The notes beneath the pieces are model-generated. The model had not been told where the DNA came from. It did not search any database and saw only the letters and a list, made by a program, of their open reading frames with translations. A program made the position numbers and the translations under genes. From contig JACQIB010000005.1 of assembly GCA_016198755.1 (NCBI GenBank), positions 32,001 through 96,000 on the forward strand: a DNA stretch of 64,000 nt, in the 5' to 3' direction. Origin of the DNA: Candidatus Aenigmatarchaeota archaeon (GTDB lineage Archaea; Aenigmatarchaeota; Aenigmatarchaeia; Aenigmatarchaeales; JACQIB01). Every line of letters starts with the position of its first letter. The first letter of the stretch is position 1. Below, in pieces: positions 27,260 through 60,234 of this stretch.

Positions 27260-27430
27260 TTAAACACCCAGAACAGCCCTTATAGGGTATAGCAGCCCTG
27301 AGGGGTTTGTTATTGTTGTTTTTTGGGAAAGTACAAAAGCCAAAATAAGTGCAACAATTATACCTAAAGCTGCCATAAGGAATATAAAATTCCATGCACC
27401 CTCATGCAAAGTTTCTATATCAAAAGCCAT
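27260..27430 (-). CDS. 56-aa single-TM microprotein (not in ORF track)
   Basis: MAFDIETLHEGAWNFIFLMAALGIIVALILAFVLSQ..VLGV*; TAATG overlap with the platform gene stop. Confidence 0.7.
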   Translation of the reverse strand: MAFDIETLHEGAWNFIFLMAALGIIVALILAFVLSQKTTITNPSGLLYPIRAVLGV

Positions 27431-29733
27431 TATTTTCCACCTATTGGTACAAGCAGCGGTGCTATAGTGCTCCCAAATACAAGGGAACTTATGCCCCAGC
27501 TTACTATGTATACTATTATCCCGAATATTAATGTTGTGCCCATTGTCTCCCTTAACCCTATCTCATCCTCTCCGTTCTGTAACCTGTTAAGGAAATAAGC
27601 TAACAAAGCAACAGTTTCAATCATATACAGTCCAACAACCATCTGGAAAGCGCCTGCGGTTATTGGCACTGAACAGCCCCCAGACCCTTGGCACCATGGA
27701 AGAACTAATAATTGCTGGGGAGCTGAAACCGATGCTCCAGTGTTAAGTATGTCATTATACTGAACTCCAAACTGGGTTAAAATCTGTATTATAACCATTG
27801 CCATTGTAACAGTTATTCCTGACACTAGAGGAGCCAAAAACACTGAAAGAAACTTCATACTGGAAATTGTATCCCCTAAAATCTCCTCCAAATCCTCTTT
27901 TAGAGTGTGCAAACCTTTCAGGTAGCGGGAAATTGTAACCATTGCAACAGAAGCTGTTTGCATCCCTTTCTTTCCTGCTTCAGCTATAACTGAAAGCACA
28001 GATCTTATCAGTGCTGATGGATAGTACCAGACTGAACCAACATCCTTGTCAAACATTGCCCTTTCAAAAGTATATCCAAACTTTGTCATGTTTGCTGTGG
28101 TTGTTGTGAAAAGGTCTGCAACCTTCATTCCTTTTAAACCCTCCACTGACCTGCTCATTGCAGATTCTATTGGAACTCCTGTGCTTAACTGGTTTCCCAA
28201 CTGGAACAAAGCTACGGAGAACTCCTCTTCTATCCTCCTTATATCCTGCCTTACTTTTGTTTTTTGATAGCTGTCTAAAATTCCATAAACAGCAGCTGAC
28301 AATCCAAAGCTCAGTGGCAAAGCAAGAGACAGGCTTGTTTCAACTCCAGTTGTAAGCAAAGCATACAAACCTAAAAGAAAGAGGGGAAGGAAAACTGCAA
28401 GTGCTACCGGCCAGACAGGCGTTTCTTTTCCGGATAAAAAGAATTTTCCAAGCCGTGGAACCCCTTTAGCTAAAGAAATATCTGGCTGGGAAAAGGTTGA
28501 GGGCTGGGCTTCCAGTGTTTTGTTTATTATAATCCAGAGGAAAGCTGGGAGAGCTATATCGTACATTATAAACAGGTACTCGGGTTTTATTGATTTTGCC
28601 AAAAAAATTACAACTATTGGGAACAGAACCAGCCCCATTACCGGAAGCAGGATTCCCATAGCATGTATAAGCATTATTGGCATGCGCAGGTTTCCTATGA
28701 ACCTTTTTGCGCGCTCTCTTGTGCCATCCAGAATAACTGAGAGTGTTTCATCAAAAAGCTCATCTCTCCTTTCAGCCTGCACTGCACTTCCCCTCAAAAG
28801 GTTCAAAGCTTCTGAAAAGGGTGGGTTTCTTTCCTTCCATCTCTCCAAATACTGCCCAAGAGCAGCATCAGCATTTGAATAAGTGCCTAAATTTATTCCC
28901 CATAAAAGTTTTTTCAAATCCCAGCTTAACGGACCGCGCAGATTTTCTGAGGCAAACTTCAATGCCCCCTCTAAATTTGGGCTTCCTCTCATGTAAATAA
29001 TCATGTATAAAACACAGAGTATGCTGTCAGAACCCATTTTCATTGTTAAAACTCTTGAACGTGAAGCAGGGTAAGTTAAAACAAAATACCATGCAAAAAT
29101 TGAGGATAGGAAAAAAATAAAAAACCCAAGGAAATCGGGCTTCCCGTTTACACCCAAAAGAGCTCTTCCCTCCCAGCTATAGCTTATAGCCCTCTCATAT
29201 CTTTTGTCCTGCAAAGCCTGTTTTGCGCTCTGTAGTGTCTGTTTTGCAAAATCCAGCTTTTCCTTTGTTCCTGCTGTGCTTCTTGTACTCTTAACAAGTT
29301 CATCAAAATCACCAACCATGATTACAGCGTTCTCTTTTGTAGGAGCCGGCTGTATAATATAGCCTGAAGCAAGATAGGCGAAGGAAAAAATCATTAAAAT
29401 TAAAAGTGCTATAATGGACAGAGCATAAACTCCGCGCGCACTTGTAACCATGTACGCATCATCTATATCCTTCTGCAGGCTTTTTTCTGTTTTTTCACTG
29501 GGCTTTATTCCCAGTACTTCAGCTCTCAGCGCTATGCGCTCAAAATAGGTCTGAGGCTTCTGCCTTACTTCCTTTAAAAAATCTGTATAATCCCTCGGTC
29601 TTGCAATAACTCTCTCTTTTTTTGGAACAGAAAGCTGCTCTCTGTCCATAAGCTTTCTGAGCTTGTCCATTCTATCCTTTTCAGCCATCTCCTTTTCTAT
29701 TTTCTTTTTATCCTTTCCGTCGAAAAACCCCAT
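27430..29733 (-). CDS. Type IV pilus platform protein (fused TadB/TadC, T2SS-F family)
   Basis: Two T2SSF-like domains (YM.IYMR..PNLE.AL.FA; EFSVALFQLGNQL..G.P.E) each followed by TM helices. Confidence 0.85.
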   Translation of the reverse strand: MGFFDGKDKKKIEKEMAEKDRMDKLRKLMDREQLSVPKKERVIARPRDYTDFLKEVRQKPQTYFERIALRAEVLGIKPSEKTEKSLQKDIDDAYMVTSARGVYALSIIALLILMIFSFAYLASGYIIQPAPTKENAVIMVGDFDELVKSTRSTAGTKEKLDFAKQTLQSAKQALQDKRYERAISYSWEGRALLGVNGKPDFLGFFIFFLSSIFAWYFVLTYPASRSRVLTMKMGSDSILCVLYMIIYMRGSPNLEGALKFASENLRGPLSWDLKKLLWGINLGTYSNADAALGQYLERWKERNPPFSEALNLLRGSAVQAERRDELFDETLSVILDGTRERAKRFIGNLRMPIMLIHAMGILLPVMGLVLFPIVVIFLAKSIKPEYLFIMYDIALPAFLWIIINKTLEAQPSTFSQPDISLAKGVPRLGKFFLSGKETPVWPVALAVFLPLFLLGLYALLTTGVETSLSLALPLSFGLSAAVYGILDSYQKTKVRQDIRRIEEEFSVALFQLGNQLSTGVPIESAMSRSVEGLKGMKVADLFTTTTANMTKFGYTFERAMFDKDVGSVWYYPSALIRSVLSVIAEAGKKGMQTASVAMVTISRYLKGLHTLKEDLEEILGDTISSMKFLSVFLAPLVSGITVTMAMVIIQILTQFGVQYNDILNTGASVSAPQQLLVLPWCQGSGGCSVPITAGAFQMVVGLYMIETVALLAYFLNRLQNGEDEIGLRETMGTTLIFGIIVYIVSWGISSLVFGSTIAPLLVPIGGK

Positions 29734-29851
29734 TCTATCTCCCAGTTTAGAATAGACTTTCCCAATATAAAAAAGCCCTAATTCACTTTCTGCCGTTGAG
29801 GCAACATTATTTATTCATGCAAATCCATTATTTCCCAGGGAGCATGTTAAA

Positions 29852-31477
29852 ATGGGGCGCAAATCCAGCTTAACAACAGGTCAAAAGGCAAGCATAAGGC
29901 ATTATGCTGAACAGGGTGAAGGACCTTCTGGTATCTCCTATTATACAGGCATTTCTCCGAGTAAGGTAAGTTATTATCTGAAATCACTTGAAAGAGAACA
30001 GGCTGGGAAAGGCAATGGAAATAGACAATATAGAAATAGGAATGGACCTGCTCCGGTGGCTGAGACAGCTACAGAAGCTGGGAAACACGGACGCGGTCCA
30101 GGAAGAACAAGTAACTCTACAGTGTTTATGATAGAGCAGATGGCTGCGCATGGCTATAATACTGAACAGATTTTAAATACACTGGGAGTCTCTGCTCATG
30201 TAGCAGAAAAATATTCTGATTTTGATGTTAGAGCCTATTTGGAAGCGAAAACTCCAACAGAAGCTGATGTGGAAAAGAAGGTAGATAGAAGGATATTGAG
30301 ACAGGAAACAATAGAAAAAATAAAAGCCTTGGCAAGGGAGGGACGCACTATAGCCGGTATAGTGGAGGAAACTGGAGTGAGCAATAGATCTATATCCAAA
30401 TATGCTGGCGCTGAACTGAATGAACGGTTGGGGGGAGAGAAGAGACAGGGAACAAGGCTGACTGCTGAAGAGAGGGAAACAATAATAGCTGCTATAGGAA
30501 CAGGAAAATATTCTGGCCCATCTGAAGTTGGAAGTGAGTTTGATATTTCCTATCACACAGCAAATGCGCTCTGGAAATCAACGGGTAGAAAAGTAAGAGC
30601 TATTGGGGAAAAACCCGAAACAACCAGGGAGCGAGGCATTAGGCTGACAAAAGAGGAGGCAGCAACTATGGACATGGCTATATTGTCTGGAATATACACA
30701 CACCCAGCAGATGTTGCAAGGGAGTTCCATGTTTCTTACCAGACAGCGCGCATCCACTGGGAAACAGCTAGAGTAGCTGTTACAAAGCCAACTGTCTTGA
30801 TAGAGCCTCCTAAACCAACGCCACCCAAAGATTTGAAAATAGGGATTAGTGCTGCTAATGCTGAGCGGTTGGATACATTATGGGGACAGGGAATCAGGAC
30901 AGTAAACGGGCTGCATGAGCGCACAGGGTTTAGTAGGCATATGGTTGGCAGGTATATGGAGGGGAGGGGATTGATATCAGAGAGGAGCAGGAGAGAAGAA
31001 CAGATAACAAAAGATAACAGGCCTGCTATGCCACCAGTGATTCTGGAAGATCTTTCAGCTGCGATTATACTACATGCTGGGGAGAAGAAAATGGAAAAGG
31101 AAGCTGCAGAACAGACTGCGCAGCATGTTCTTAACTTTTTTGGCTACTCTAACAGGATTATAGATAATATACTGGAGCCTGAAGACAGGGACATTTTTTA
31201 TATGTTAGAGGATGCTGGGATAGCTACAACAGAAAGAGAGGAAACAACTTTATATGATGGGAGGGAATGGAGAATACACTATTGGGTGTTTAATCATGAT
31301 AGGATAAAACAGATTTTGGCTCCTCTAAAAACTGCAAAGAGAGAGAAAAGTCCTGAAGATGTGTATGAGGAGCTGGATGATGGGTTATGGCATGGTCATG
31401 GAGCAGAACCTGTTGAAGGGGTTCATGTTACTAACGGGTTGGTAGCAGCTCAGGCTGGAGCAAGAGGCTCTGGTTAA
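29852..31477 (+). CDS. Six-HTH repeat protein with C-terminal DUF6015-like domain
   Basis: Six LT..E...I.....G......(G/F).S...V..Y units; C-terminal HVLNFFGYSNRIIDNILEPEDRDIFYMLEDAG. Confidence 0.75.
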   Translation: MGRKSSLTTGQKASIRHYAEQGEGPSGISYYTGISPSKVSYYLKSLEREQAGKGNGNRQYRNRNGPAPVAETATEAGKHGRGPGRTSNSTVFMIEQMAAHGYNTEQILNTLGVSAHVAEKYSDFDVRAYLEAKTPTEADVEKKVDRRILRQETIEKIKALAREGRTIAGIVEETGVSNRSISKYAGAELNERLGGEKRQGTRLTAEERETIIAAIGTGKYSGPSEVGSEFDISYHTANALWKSTGRKVRAIGEKPETTRERGIRLTKEEAATMDMAILSGIYTHPADVAREFHVSYQTARIHWETARVAVTKPTVLIEPPKPTPPKDLKIGISAANAERLDTLWGQGIRTVNGLHERTGFSRHMVGRYMEGRGLISERSRREEQITKDNRPAMPPVILEDLSAAIILHAGEKKMEKEAAEQTAQHVLNFFGYSNRIIDNILEPEDRDIFYMLEDAGIATTEREETTLYDGREWRIHYWVFNHDRIKQILAPLKTAKREKSPEDVYEELDDGLWHGHGAEPVEGVHVTNGLVAAQAGARGSG

Positions 31478-33726
31478 GGAGCTTTCTTTGCCTGTTCTCT
31501 GAACCAGTTTTGCCATAAATTGAAAACCCTGTCAGCTTCTACAGAACCAACTTCCTGCCTTACTGTTTCTGAGAATCTGTGGAAAGCTTGGTTGCTTGCA
31601 ACCACTGTAGGGGCTTCCAAAAGGGCTGGCTTTCCTGTGGCTCCTGCCACGCGCACAATCTCACTCAAAACTTTTGCCCTTAACTGTATATTGTCCCAGA
31701 CAGAATCCCATCTGCCAGCCCATCCCGGCACTCTTTTTGCTATATCGTTCAGTATTTGGCTTTCTCCTGTTAACAGAGTATCTGTTGGTTTTAAAGAATC
31801 TGAGCGGGAGTTATATTCTAACAGATTTACAAATCCATGTTCTTCAGCAGGATCCTTTGTCCAGTGCTTTCTAACCTCAGTAACTTCTGTTACCCTTCTG
31901 AAACTTCTTAATCCATCAGCGCTGCGGATTTTGTTTGCAACAACAATTAAATCAGTGGCTTTAAAGCTTGTTGCAGGAACTCCTAAATCATTTACAACCC
32001 TGTCAAAAACCCCATAAGCGCTTTCCCCGTGTATAGTTCCGGCAACAACATTTGCTAAAGCTCCAATCCTCATTGCCTCGTACAGGGCTATTGCTTCTCT
32101 CGATCTTACCTCGCCAATAAACAGACAGGAATCTCCCATTCTAAGAGCTGTTCTGATAGCCTCCTCAGCAGAAAGCTCAAGCTCAACTTTTGTTATAACA
32201 CTTCTGGATTTCATTCTTTCAACATTATAGCTCAGCTTTCTCAGAGCCTCTATTGGAAGTTCATAAGTATCCTCAACTGTAATAATTCTGTAATAAGGGA
32301 TAACCTGCAACATTAAGGAACCGAGTAGAGAAGTTTTTCCAGAGCCTCTGGTTCCTGCAACTAACAGTGTTCTCCCGTATGTTGTGAAAAACCAGAGCAA
32401 ACCAGCTGTTAGTGGATCAAAGAAATGGTTTTGTATAAATAATGGAAATGTCCATGGTTCAAACCTGTGCCTTCTGAAAGCAAAAGCTAATCCTTCCGGT
32501 GAAACTCTTGGCCCAATAGCTGCTACTCTTGCAACACCTCCTGGAACAGATATTTCAGTGTCTAAAACAGGATTTGCCTCGTCTAATGGGCGGCCTGATA
32601 AAAGCTTAAATCTTGTTGACCATCTCTCCCCGTCCTCTTTTGTTGGAATAATATTTGTTTCACATTCATCAAATTCCTGATGTAGAATAAAAAGCGGTTG
32701 TTCACCCAATGGGCTGTTTATGTGTATATCCTGTATCTTTGAGTCTGCAAGCAAAAGCTCCAGTACCCCCAATCCTGTAGTATACCTAGTAAGTATTTGT
32801 GCTAACTCTTCAAGTTTTTCCTGTGAAAAGTTAAACCTGCGCAGGCTTGATATGTCCCTTAAAAGTTCTAGAGAAATAGAATGGAAAATATCCCTCATTT
32901 TCTCCTGATCTCTGACCTCAAACTCCTGCGGCTTTCTCTCCTCCAGAGCCTTCCTTGAATCATCCAGTACAGTATATTCTTCCTCACTCAAAACAAATTC
33001 GGGCGGAGTTATCTGGTAAATGGGCCTTACTTTTCCAGGAACCTTAAAAATCTCAACTCTTGTTCCCCCGACATTATACTTGTCTATTATTTCCCCGCCT
33101 GCCGGAGGTTTTAACACAAACTTTGTAAGCATAAAGTTAGGTCTTATTATTGGGTGGAACAGTTTTCTGTATACTGAACGATCCCCTATATGGTAGCCTG
33201 TTAAAAAGGGCTGGGCGTTTTTAATTAGGTCTGTTTTTCCCAAAATTGTTTTTATAGGCTCCAGAACAGCTGATAAATAATGTTCAAGCGCTTTTTTCTC
33301 CTTTTCATTTTCTGTTCTTTTCAAAATTATTTTTATATGCCTTATTTCCCTTTCGATATCTAAATATCCTCCTATAGGATCCCCCCTCAACTGGACTGAA
33401 ACAAGTGTATAAAGCCAGCTTTTCCATTTGTCGAAAAACTTGCCGGAAATGGATTTGTCCAGATTTTCATCTGATATAATTTTTTCCTCCATTACGATCC
33501 TGTTTATTGAAGCTGCAATCTGAACAAGCATTTTTGTCTGCTCTGGACCATACTCATTTTCCCTCGTTTCTGCCATTACAACGCTTGTTACTTTTCTCTC
33601 TGAAAGCAGCTTATCTACTACCCGTGCCATGCAAACATCAAAGTCTTCTATGCTGGAGCCAAACAATGCTCCGGAGCAGTTTATCTTCATCCTCCCATCC
33701 TTCAGTTCTGTTACCTCATAAACCAA
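31474..33726 (-). CDS. Type II/IV secretion ATPase (VirB11/TadA family)
   Basis: Walker A GTRGSGKT, ITVEDTYEL, ALRMGDSCLFIGEVRS, GTIHG; TTG start at 33726 after a GGGGGAG SD. Confidence 0.93.
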   Translation of the reverse strand: MVYEVTELKDGRMKINCSGALFGSSIEDFDVCMARVVDKLLSERKVTSVVMAETRENEYGPEQTKMLVQIAASINRIVMEEKIISDENLDKSISGKFFDKWKSWLYTLVSVQLRGDPIGGYLDIEREIRHIKIILKRTENEKEKKALEHYLSAVLEPIKTILGKTDLIKNAQPFLTGYHIGDRSVYRKLFHPIIRPNFMLTKFVLKPPAGGEIIDKYNVGGTRVEIFKVPGKVRPIYQITPPEFVLSEEEYTVLDDSRKALEERKPQEFEVRDQEKMRDIFHSISLELLRDISSLRRFNFSQEKLEELAQILTRYTTGLGVLELLLADSKIQDIHINSPLGEQPLFILHQEFDECETNIIPTKEDGERWSTRFKLLSGRPLDEANPVLDTEISVPGGVARVAAIGPRVSPEGLAFAFRRHRFEPWTFPLFIQNHFFDPLTAGLLWFFTTYGRTLLVAGTRGSGKTSLLGSLMLQVIPYYRIITVEDTYELPIEALRKLSYNVERMKSRSVITKVELELSAEEAIRTALRMGDSCLFIGEVRSREAIALYEAMRIGALANVVAGTIHGESAYGVFDRVVNDLGVPATSFKATDLIVVANKIRSADGLRSFRRVTEVTEVRKHWTKDPAEEHGFVNLLEYNSRSDSLKPTDTLLTGESQILNDIAKRVPGWAGRWDSVWDNIQLRAKVLSEIVRVAGATGKPALLEAPTVVASNQAFHRFSETVRQEVGSVEADRVFNLWQNWFREQAKKAP

Positions 33727-33800
33727 GCCAAACTCCCCCCTTCTTTTATATATATAGGACAATAAAACTATATTTATCTTTACAGATAAAGGTTTTCCAA

Positions 33801-34142
33801 ATGCCAGAAGTGAATCTTTCAACAGTGCTGAACGAGGCTTTTAGGAGGCTTAATGAAGCTTCCAGAAGATTGAGAGCTTCTGAAGAGAGGTATGATGTTC
33901 TTGAAACAAGGCTGGAAGGGCTGCAAAATACAATGCTTAAAATCAGCGATGAGCTTTCAGGGAAGATAGAGAAAAGTTCAGGGGAACAGAAGGATTTTGA
34001 AGCAAGGTTAGTTAGGATAGAAGCAGATCTTACAAAAATTGGGCAGGCTATGGAAAAGAGCGCAAAATCCTCTGATTTGGAGGAGTTAAAGAATCTTGTG
34101 GAGCTTTATTCCCCGTTTAAAGAAAAGAGAAAGAGTGATTGA
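33801..34142 (+). CDS. Small coiled-coil protein
   Basis: MPEVNL..RRLRASEERYD..LEELKNLVELYSP; start moved to ATG 33801. Confidence 0.7.
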   Translation: MPEVNLSTVLNEAFRRLNEASRRLRASEERYDVLETRLEGLQNTMLKISDELSGKIEKSSGEQKDFEARLVRIEADLTKIGQAMEKSAKSSDLEELKNLVELYSPFKEKRKSD

Positions 34143-43633: not shown

Positions 43634-44407
43634 TTATTGGCTGCGGGTGGCCTTGAGTTTTTCCAATATAGATTTTTTGACAGACTTGAACTCCGGCACC
43701 ATTGGTATAAGTGGGTCTAGTTCAGAGTTCCAGATAGCCTCTTTAAGGTTCAGGTGCTTTTCAAATTTACCTGGGCTCCAGCTTTCCCTATAATATTCCA
43801 GTTTTTTATCTGTCAATTCCTTATCAAAGGAAACTCCTTTCTCAAGCAGGAACCAAAGATCATAAACATCCCTGGCTTTTGTTCGGCTCATTATAGCCCT
43901 GACCTTTTCAGCCAGTATTTCCCTTTCGTCCATTACTAGGACATCAAACTCCGGTAGTTCCTCAATAAATCTCCCAACGGTTTTAATTAGTGGTTTCAAG
44001 GTTACATTTTCCCTAAAGCTAAAGTCTATGATAAAATTGCAAATGCTGTGCCTTACACCAAGATATAACGGTCCAGTTATTCTAAGAATAATTTTTAAAC
44101 CGTTTTCATACTCCTTTGTCTCAATTTCGTACTCTATACCAAATCTTTTCAGTCCAGACTCTAATTTTTTAGTGTCTACCTTGCCTACGCATGTAAAATC
44201 CAAATCTTCTGAAAACCTGTTCAGACCATAGCATTTTTTTAAGGCAGTGCCACCCTTAAAAATAAGGGTGTTTCCATACTCTTGGTAGAGAATAAACAAT
44301 ATTATATTCTGGATATAGTCCTTTTCTGCTTGGCCTAGATTTTTTAGACCTGCAACTTTTGCATAGTTTTTTAATTCTTCCTTTTGTATCATATCTTTAG
44401 CCTCCAT
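43634..44407 (-). CDS. AbiEii-family nucleotidyltransferase toxin
   Basis: EKDYIQ, FKGGTALKKCYGLNRFSEDLDF, EILAEKVRA, ARDVYDLW. Confidence 0.92.
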   Translation of the reverse strand: MEAKDMIQKEELKNYAKVAGLKNLGQAEKDYIQNIILFILYQEYGNTLIFKGGTALKKCYGLNRFSEDLDFTCVGKVDTKKLESGLKRFGIEYEIETKEYENGLKIILRITGPLYLGVRHSICNFIIDFSFRENVTLKPLIKTVGRFIEELPEFDVLVMDEREILAEKVRAIMSRTKARDVYDLWFLLEKGVSFDKELTDKKLEYYRESWSPGKFEKHLNLKEAIWNSELDPLIPMVPEFKSVKKSILEKLKATRSQ

Positions 44408-45075
44408 TTACTATATGTTTTTTCCCATTTCTTTGAGAATGGATTTAAAACGACATAGTTTTTGTCTAAGATAAAGTTGTGAGATATATCCACGCTCTTA
44501 ATAGTTTCCAGTAAATAACCGACTCGCTTAATAACATTGTTATTGCCTGTGATCTGGAGGTATTTAACAACTTTATCCTCATCTATTTTTGCGTTCTCAA
44601 ATATTTTTATTATTTCGTCAAAATTTCCACATTCCTTTGGTCTCAGAAAACAGTCTATTAAAAGCTTTTCATCCTCTGCAATAAAAATATCCCCCTCGTC
44701 CGTTCTTATTTTTTTATAGCCAAAAACTGGCTTAATGGAAACAAATTTTATATCGTACCCTTCAAACTTTATTGGGACGGCTCTTCTTGTGGTCGCGACC
44801 TGAACAGTGTTAAGAATCTGTTCTGTGTAACCAAGAAAGTAGGATGCTGACCAGAACGAGATATAGGAAGGATAAACTATGTTGCTAGCTATCAAGAAAA
44901 TGCTGTCCTTTGTGGTGTAAGCGTTTCTTTTTATCTTTTTTACTAACCCTCTTTGTTTTAACCTGTTCAAAATCAACTTTGCATATATTCCCTTACAATA
45001 CCCAATACGCTCTATATCTTGTATCTTAAAGACCGCTTTAGCTCTAAGCTTATCTAAAAGTTCTATCGCTTTCAT
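44389..45075 (-). CDS. AbiEi-family antitoxin / transcriptional regulator
   Basis: N-terminal wHTH, PSYISFWSA, EKLLID, KRVGYLLE. Confidence 0.88.
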   Translation of the reverse strand: MKAIELLDKLRAKAVFKIQDIERIGYCKGIYAKLILNRLKQRGLVKKIKRNAYTTKDSIFLIASNIVYPSYISFWSASYFLGYTEQILNTVQVATTRRAVPIKFEGYDIKFVSIKPVFGYKKIRTDEGDIFIAEDEKLLIDCFLRPKECGNFDEIIKIFENAKIDEDKVVKYLQITGNNNVIKRVGYLLETIKSVDISHNFILDKNYVVLNPFSKKWEKTYSKWRLKI

Positions 45076-60143: not shown

Positions 60144-60234
60144 TGGTAGCGGAGGCTTGATTTGAACAAGCGACCTTCGGGTGTTTCAAGTTTTTTATGA
60201 GCCCGACGAGCACTCCAGGCTGCTCCACTCCGCT
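60144..60234 (-). tRNA. Initiator tRNA-Met(CAT) with a 13-nt intron at 37/38 (60183-60195), CCA encoded
   Basis: A1:U72 acceptor AGCGGAG/CTCCGCT, anticodon stem TCGGG/CCCGA, CTCATA^AAAAACTTGAAAC^A, T loop TTCAAAT. Confidence 0.93.

Follow-up and report, generated by a model that had tools for sequence, protein, structure and literature searches.

How did a gene for a protein with an array of helix-turn-helix (HTH) units come to lie, in antisense orientation, between the ATPase and platform genes of an archaeal type IV pilus locus, and what might its product do? We address this question for a protein of 541 amino acids (aa) encoded on contig JACQIB010000005.1 of Candidatus Aenigmatarchaeota archaeon, within a stretch of 64,000 nt that was analysed as a whole (the window). 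The protein carries six HTH units followed by a domain of the family DUF6015 (PF19479). We know of no function described for this family, and the word DUF6015 was not found in the literature searched; supplements, which may list such proteins under other names, lay outside that search.

The window is part of a genome of 890,842 bp in six contigs (89% complete; G000), which encodes an archaeal Hel308-type helicase, TYW2/Trm5 enzymes, a ribonucleotide reductase and tRNAs. It derives from the cellular genome of a DPANN archaeon with kin among the Aenigmatarchaeota, and neither from a virus nor from a member of the Thermoplasmatota. Genome G037, which belongs to the same order, encodes a protein identical to P0127, assigned by NCBI to Candidatus Aenigmatarchaeota. 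With roughly even confidence, we read the protein as a modular DNA-binding regulator whose basic HTH array holds a TFE-like protein-contact module on the DNA, encoded by a resident gene that was relocated within its genome.

Architecture of the six-HTH protein and its relatives

The gene and the parts of its product are as follows.

29852..31477, + strand: gene for the 541-aa six-HTH and DUF6015 protein, stop codon included (open reading frame list, Pfam, homologues)
29864..30001, + strand: HTH unit 1 (aa 5-50); Pfam HTH_5 at aa 26-48 with 25.4 bits; helices 9-20, 25-32 and 36-53
30107..30235, + strand: HTH unit 2 (aa 86-128), the weakest; helices 88-99, 104-111 and 115-120, with a predicted local distance difference test score (pLDDT) of ~55
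30287..30421, + strand: HTH unit 3 (aa 146-190); sub-threshold HTH_23 and HTH_7 matches at aa 147-183; helices to 162, 167-174 and 178-192
30449..30595, + strand: HTH unit 4 (aa 200-248), paralogue of unit 5 (unit alignment); helices 205-216, 223-230 and 234-243
30635..30781, + strand: HTH unit 5 (aa 262-310), counterpart of unit 2 of the relative P0122 (alignment); helices 267-279, 285-292 and 296-310
30836..30979, + strand: HTH unit 6 (aa 329-376), counterpart of P0122 unit 3 (alignment); helices 334-345, 351-358 and 362-372
31046..31414, + strand: DUF6015 domain (aa 399-521), an acidic winged helix, then a helix and a VYxE..W tail motif (PF19479 and model)
31124..31285, + strand: near-invariant core HVLNFFGY...GREWRIHYW (aa 425-478; alignment of 25 sequences)
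31397..31474, + strand: C-terminal tail (aa 516-541), common to P0122 and P0001 (alignments)

The division into six HTH units and a DUF6015 domain had been proposed in an earlier note made from the sequence alone, and it is confirmed by a family match, a leave-one-out test and a structural model. PF19479 matches residues 399-521 with an E value of 1.1e-26 (94.4 bits against a cut-off of 27), and the peptide quoted in that note corresponds to the core at residues 425-478. Across the 541-aa protein and 24 stand-alone members, 50 columns of the DUF6015 core are invariant, and the core pattern NFFG..R.IDN.LE.EDRD.FY.LED.G..T.REET.LYDG.EWRIHYW is present in the protein. For the array, a hidden Markov model (HMM) built from five HTH units was used to score the sixth, with 200 shuffles of residues 1-390 as the null. 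Units 1 to 6 reached 8.3, 3.7, 24.6, 29.1, 16.9 and 7.3 bits, respectively; a single shuffle matched the observed score of unit 2, and none matched that of any other unit. The full-length AlphaFold2 model, calculated from a three-row alignment, places six triplets (a long helix, an 8-residue helix, a 3-residue turn and a further helix) exactly at the unit positions, with pLDDT values of ~63-82 for all units except unit 2. Judged from sequence and model together, the six HTH units are real, unit 2 being the least certain.

Unit 1 is the only one to pass a Pfam cut-off (22 bits for HTH_5). In unit 3, HTH_23 reaches 22.9 bits against 24.6 and HTH_7 18.1 against 23.8, and units 2, 4, 5 and 6 have no Pfam match. 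The HTH assignment of the earlier note holds for the fold; its label 'resolvase-like' corresponds to the sub-threshold HTH_7 match only.

The two halves of the protein carry opposite charge. The N-terminal 390 residues are basic (net +12, isoelectric point (pI) 9.6) and the DUF6015 part is acidic (net -12, pI 4.7), as are stand-alone DUF6015 proteins in general (median pI 4.41, maximum 5.48; n = 119). Residues 391-541 contain no cysteine, and the DUF6015 part therefore has no zinc ribbon.

The resemblance of the C-terminal segment to small stand-alone DUF6015 proteins is borne out by 3161 proteins of 83-265 aa that match the last 151 residues at E ≤ 1e-3. The best match is P0001 (239 aa, 69% identity), and the other matches listed are 53-62% identical over ~80% of the query. 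Every named protein among the matches listed belongs to the Thermoplasmatota, most being without a name. The expectation of top hits from the Thermoplasmatota at high identity was thus right as to the phylum of the named listed matches and too high as to identity, which is moderate. P0001 apart, the stand-alone proteins listed are 126-161 aa long; they share with the window protein the near-invariant core, the acidity and a fold of helix, helix, strand, helix, hairpin and helix. They differ from it in that here the domain ends a 541-aa protein after a 390-aa HTH array and is followed by the extra tail, before which the 24 stand-alone proteins of the alignment stop, one of them having a short, unlike extension.

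Among proteins of 297-947 aa, 25 fused DUF6015 forms (300-864 aa) were recovered. Among the closest relatives, P0122 (381 aa) and P0001 share the N-terminal HTH unit with the window protein at 61-67% identity over 51 residues, and the alignment places a related unit at the N-terminus of a protein from the same family (genome G002). An HMM of the window units has three matches in P0122, one in P0001 and one at the N-terminus of the G002 protein (E 1.1e-4), and matched none of 160 shuffled proteins. When residues 1-390 were compared exhaustively with 1.84 billion representatives (phmmer), four proteins were found at E ≤ 0.001: P0122, P0001, P0146 and P0147. No close relatives of the HTH array were found in the JGI metagenomes. 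The array is thus nearly private to a small clade, and it has increased from one to three to six units (P0001, P0122 and the window protein).

The metagenomic proteins P0146 and P0147 consist almost solely of tandem HTH units of the window type, five or six in number, and lack DUF6015. In the other fused forms, unrelated N-termini with HTH-type matches precede the domain, DUF6015 being placed after DNA-binding modules. A further metagenomic protein, P0126 (849 aa), ends in DUF6015 and also contains an nSTAND3 NTPase and a nuclease-like HSDR_N domain, a combination characteristic of STAND proteins of the defence type.

The pilus junction and the descent of the gene

The gene lies between two genes of the opposite strand, from one of which it is separated by a short intergenic region.

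27430..29733, - strand: type IV pilus platform gene (T2SSF/TadC-like; PF00482, E 8.7e-9), divergent from the six-HTH gene
29734..29851, no strand: divergent intergenic region of 118 bp (read from the sequence)
31474..33822, - strand: type IV pilus ATPase gene (T2SSE/FlaI-like; PF00437, E 1.3e-17; FlaI and TadA models below their cut-offs)

That the gene splits, in antisense, two normally adjacent genes is confirmed by comparison with other genomes of the same family. Orthologues of the ATPase gene occur in all six of them (58-72% identical), and those of the platform gene lie beside it, with 47-53% identity over the main aligned segment. The two genes are adjacent and co-directional in four of the five assessable genomes: the platform gene follows the ATPase gene directly in G003, G001 and G005 and ~260-320 bp downstream in G006. 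The sixth genome, G004, is not assessable, its contig ending inside the ATPase gene. The six-HTH gene is absent from this place in G001, G002, G003, G005 and G006. In G002, a different antisense gene occupies the same junction (L105:9383-10459); it encodes a Thr/Ser-rich protein of 358 aa with a signal-peptide-like start and no Pfam family. The ATPase-platform junction may be a recurrent landing site.

Four Logan contigs, one from each of four runs, span positions 29300-32000 and hence both junctions with 0 differences. All four runs stem from one groundwater study, which is possibly the source of the window's own DNA; being separately assembled, the contigs show that neither junction is an artefact of a single assembly. 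Only short, chance-level matches were found around the insert, which is flanked by neither terminal nor target-site repeats.

Type-IV-pilus-like loci have been described for cluster-2 DPANN archaea, Aenigmarchaeota included (Hamm et al. 2024, PMC11291902, in the parts of the text accessible to us). The window locus resembles them in its CpaF/FlaI-like ATPase, its TadC-like platform protein and a coiled-coil protein, and the six-HTH gene is not part of the conserved set. The word 'transcription' does not occur in the main text of that paper.

The insertion also alters the layout of the operon. The stop codons of the ATPase gene and the six-HTH gene, which converge on each other, overlap at 31474-31477. 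This convergent, overlapping end must uncouple two genes that seemingly form one transcription unit in the kin, where they are adjacent or overlapping. On the other side, the 118-bp region contains one A/T-rich TATA-like box per gene (~29764-29775 on the - strand and ~29806-29815 on the + strand), which are putative promoters, and a GGGAG 5 and 9 nt ahead of the respective ATG. The word TTTCCCA occurs twice in this region. We rejected it as a binding site since it is over-represented throughout the window (41 occurrences against 18.25 expected, a number reached in 0 of 100 shuffles) and lies mostly within genes, so that it is not specific; its excess may be a codon-pair effect.

Where did the gene come from? 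In G002 and G006, the HTH and DUF6015 gene adjoins an orthologue of C6:77911-79227 of the window's genome, in which the corresponding slot holds only open reading frames of 78 and 193 aa. A relocation of the gene within the genome into the pilus operon is therefore likely. In other families, HTH and DUF6015 genes occupy other genomic slots. Base composition does not hint at a recent arrival: the gene has a GC content at third codon positions (GC3) of 0.348, the 50th percentile of the genome's 545 long open reading frames, and its DUF6015 part lies at the 28th percentile; its total GC is high (96th percentile), for which the amino-acid make-up may account.

A quick initial tree (147 rows) had too little resolution to be used. 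In a careful DUF6015 tree (65 rows, 142 columns), the window protein pairs with P0001 (support 97/87), and this pair joins P0122 and the G002 protein of the same family at 90/68. The backbone lacks resolution (27/83), and other rows of the window's phylum are scattered among those of the Thermoplasmatota. The approximately unbiased (AU) test, with groups set by kinship codes after the quick tree had been seen, rejected neither a single clade of the window protein and six rows of its own order against 37 Thermoplasmatota rows (p 0.162) nor a single clade of all 16 rows of its own phylum (p 0.163). We regard the gene as an inherited member of a family-level lineage, an old resident rather than a recent theft from a host.

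How this lineage first acquired DUF6015 is a separate matter, and here an explanation compatible with the regulator reading stands about evenly poised: one or several old transfers from the Thermoplasmatota, where DUF6015 is a core gene, into the Aenigmatarchaeota, followed by fusion to HTH arrays. It is plausible because of the contrast in distribution. Of the Thermoplasmatota genomes sampled, 298 of 301 match the domain model (G310-G610, the phylum of the Methanomassiliicoccales-type genome L071/G310), often in 2-4 copies, against 18 of 301 of the window's phylum, in only five family codes (f1 3/6, f3 2/15, f5 1/2, f9 6/9 and f18 5/8); 9 of the 42 genomes of the window's order carry it, and none of 14 control genomes matched the model. 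Rows of the window's phylum are scattered in both trees, with G041 among Thermoplasmata rows in the poorly resolved part and the f18 clade beside G460 (94/83). The differing slots of the fused genes in different families also speak for it, and many transfers from Euryarchaeota to Aenigmarchaeota have been reported (PMC8407114, accessible text). Opposed to this are the low support of the backbone and the AU results, which leave single own-order and own-phylum clades standing; the direction is unrooted, and the patchiness could also reflect loss in reduced genomes.

DUF6015 and the winged helix of TFE

If the HTH array reads DNA, what could the acidic domain behind it contribute? A model of DUF6015 from a 25-row alignment (pLDDT 70.7) consists of helix, helix, short strand, helix, long beta-hairpin and helix. 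Compared with 48,161 representative chains by VIA-align, it ranks TFE-alpha of P. furiosus first and second, with Z 7.4 (rmsd 5.9, 96 aligned residues, 20% identity), which the tool's own note calls 'middling', and Z 7.2. Fur (Z 6.2), TFIIE-alpha chains of pre-initiation complexes (Z 6.1) and the winged helix of S. solfataricus TFE (1q1h, Z 5.9) follow. The best Foldseek rows are ArsR/SmtB-type regulators (3.3e-3), then TFIIE and P. furiosus TFE-alpha (9.6e-3). The resemblance to the TFE winged helix that the earlier note had pointed out finds support in that the extended winged helix of TFE-alpha/TFIIE-alpha (PDB 6pln, 6xjf and 1q1h; chain W of Pol II pre-initiation complexes) is the nearest known fold.

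At the sequence level, TFIIE_alpha (PF02002) is the only Pfam family besides DUF6015 that recurs: at E ≤ 1 it matches 15 of 25 members, the lowest E being 5.5e-4. In the PDB, the profile matches T. kodakarensis TFE best, though not significantly (E 0.76); this match aligns helix 3 and the wing, which are in register between DUF6015 (...FYML..G..W.IHYW) and TFE (...LYxL..GW..FYW). With hhalign, 147 DUF6015 rows matched eight TFE rows with a probability of 67.9% (P 4.9e-5); the 79 aligned columns cover the winged helix, and reversed controls gave 0.1-0.5%.

Because the recognition helix of DUF6015 is acidic, we prefer a protein partner to canonical DNA reading. When the DUF6015 domain was modelled in complex with residues 1-330 of the genome's own Rpo1N, the clamp, the score was 0.34 (runs 0.35, 0.23 and 0.34) and the best of three controls 0.00. 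The runs agree in at least 61% of contacts, with a partner pLDDT of at least 70. This lends weak support: among solved complexes 116 of 157 pass the mark, as do 2 of 215 mismatched pairs, and scores of 0.60 or less comprise only 18 of the 157 together with both passing mismatches. The pass may reflect likeness to solved TFE/TFIIE-polymerase complexes.

Taken as a regulator, the protein would be a variation on a known type, that of transcription factors that combine several HTH units with a winged-helix effector. In this view, internal duplication gave rise to the six tandem tri-helical units, and the array would bind DNA, probably at several adjacent sites. Through the DUF6015 module, the protein would bind a conserved component of the transcription machinery, for which the clamp of RNA polymerase is the likeliest candidate, and so alter initiation at the bound promoters. 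The gene would have left an ancestral slot for the type IV pilus operon, where it now lies between the ATPase and platform genes, and through the shared divergent promoter region the protein may regulate the platform operon as well as its own gene. A regulation of the pilus operon is possible, judged from position.

Several observations weigh against this reading. The full-length model is poor overall (mean pLDDT 54.7). A Z below 8 can be a common arrangement, Foldseek found no match in the PDB at E ≤ 1e-3, and PF02002 always stays below its cut-off (15-16.3 bits against 22.9). The hhalign probability falls to 5.7% with six Thermoplasmatota TFE rows alone and to a non-significant 0.33% with shallow alignments. 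DUF6015 differs from TFE-alpha by its acidic surface and by the absence of cysteines and zinc ribbon; with scores below family cut-offs, homology is not established. In some Thermoplasmatota, DUF6015 coexists with canonical TFE. No pilus gene was found within ~9 kb at any of ten loci around the relatives' DUF6015 genes; what ties the gene to the pilus is thus its position, and in this genome only. Finally, no binding site, transcript or partner was observed.

A wider proposal concerns the Thermoplasmata, which, according to the accessible text of a review (PMC7289017), lack both TFE-alpha and TFE-beta. DUF6015 could be their missing TFE counterpart, an acidic, extended winged helix without zinc ribbon that would dock on the RNA polymerase clamp, and some DPANN archaea would have welded this module to sequence-reading HTH arrays. 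On balance, we hold this to be unlikely. The NCBIfam model of TFE (TIGR00373) matches 23 of 101 Thermoplasmatota genomes, ~19 of them strongly, the genomes concerned being 1.7 to 4.5 Mb in size; it matches none of four Methanomassiliicoccales-type genomes at E ≤ 0.001. It has no match in the 541-aa protein, nor in the window's genome or its six family relatives, and only weak matches in 8 of the 42 genomes of the order. PF02002 was discarded as a detector of TFE, being unspecific: it matches bacterial controls, and its match in G002 is a protein with a winged helix and a nucleotidyltransferase.

The main value of the analysis lies in this hypothesis on DUF6015 and the missing TFE of the Thermoplasmata. 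Should RNA polymerase prove to be the target of DUF6015, the domain would close what looks like a gap in the basal transcription set of archaea; each fused protein would then be an activator in a single chain, bringing part of the initiation machinery to selected promoters, in this genome next to the pilus platform operon. The protein would also exemplify how a regulator can arise in a reduced DPANN genome through duplication of HTH units (1, 3, 6) ahead of an effector domain that is either borrowed or ancient, and how a host-contact pilus operon is split and given a new promoter.

Could the array instead serve an architectural role? As a nucleoid-type protein, the six HTH units would coat or bridge repeated DNA in the manner of Cbp1 on CRISPR repeats. 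The accessible texts on Cbp1 of Sulfolobales describe a protein whose three imperfect HTH repeats bind CRISPR repeats (PMC3597662, PMC10883916), likewise a single archaeal polypeptide of tandem tri-helical HTH units; tandem arrays without any other domain exist in P0146 and P0147, and the NCBIfam model of Cbp1 (NF040595) matches at 14.7 bits. This score is far under the cut-off of 140, however, and no repeated DNA target was found around the gene. The window protein also differs from Cbp1 in having six units rather than three, a C-terminal winged-helix module and no visible CRISPR link, and the acidity and extreme conservation of its C-terminal domain speak for a specific protein as partner. 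We consider an architectural role distinctly unlikely.

The neighbourhood of DUF6015 in the Thermoplasmatota might hint at another partner. In 24 of 39 Thermoplasmatota loci with full flanks (among L014-L093; for example L021:6424-8295), a gene for an XPD/Rad3-type helicase (DEAD_2, HBB, Helicase_C_2) lies directly downstream of DUF6015 on the same strand. The domain might accordingly act with XPD in DNA repair or helicase control rather than in initiation, the fused DPANN forms directing that activity to DNA. Yet binding does not follow from gene order alone, the remaining 15 loci differ in their neighbours (FtsY, DUF123 and SepF), and the window's genome has no DEAD_2 match, albeit at 89% completeness; this function appears quite improbable here.

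That the gene is the remnant of a transposable element with transposase-type HTHs, landed in the operon and without host function, is very improbable. The foreign antisense gene at the same spot in G002 and weak matches to IS21 and IS630 transposases (21.3 and 15 bits) would fit such an origin, but these matches are confined to the HTH level, far from the cut-offs of 160 and 100, and no catalytic (DDE) domain is present; the insert has no inverted or direct terminal repeats, is single-copy in the genome and keeps an intact 541-aa frame with a conserved domain, relatives and typical GC3.

Least of all survives a reading in the line of the earlier note, by which a virus or mobile element recently captured the domain from a Thermoplasmatota host to mimic a host regulator: the phylum of the named matches listed, the near-universal presence of DUF6015 in the Thermoplasmatota and the interrupted operon agree with it, but it is largely refuted by the cellular DPANN genome, the absence from IMG/VR of matches to the two DUF6015 peptide patterns EETTLYD and GREWRIH, relatives of the same design in the window's own family and order, GC3 at the genome median, AU results that leave own-lineage clades standing, an insert without terminal repeats or target duplication, and an identity to Thermoplasmatota proteins of at most 62%, under the 70% bar for recent horizontal gene transfer in work on Aenigmarchaeota (PMC8407114, accessible text). 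Instead, the homologues are inherited within the lineage, at least at the family level.

Further features of the locus and the window

Among the public runs covering the stretch, no RNA runs are listed. In G005, the orthologous ATPase gene holds an in-frame intein of 509 aa with a LAGLIDADG homing endonuclease (L108:4767-6293; Intein_splicing, E 1.5e-22).

Elsewhere in the window, positions 43634-45075 (- strand) encode an AbiEii-type nucleotidyltransferase toxin domain (E 6.9e-33), and an overlapping upstream open reading frame of 228 aa might be its antitoxin partner. At 60144-60234 (- strand), ARAGORN calls a 91-nt tRNA-Asp with its anticodon at position 28, which the Rfam tRNA model does not report at its gathering score; this may indicate an intron or a miscall.

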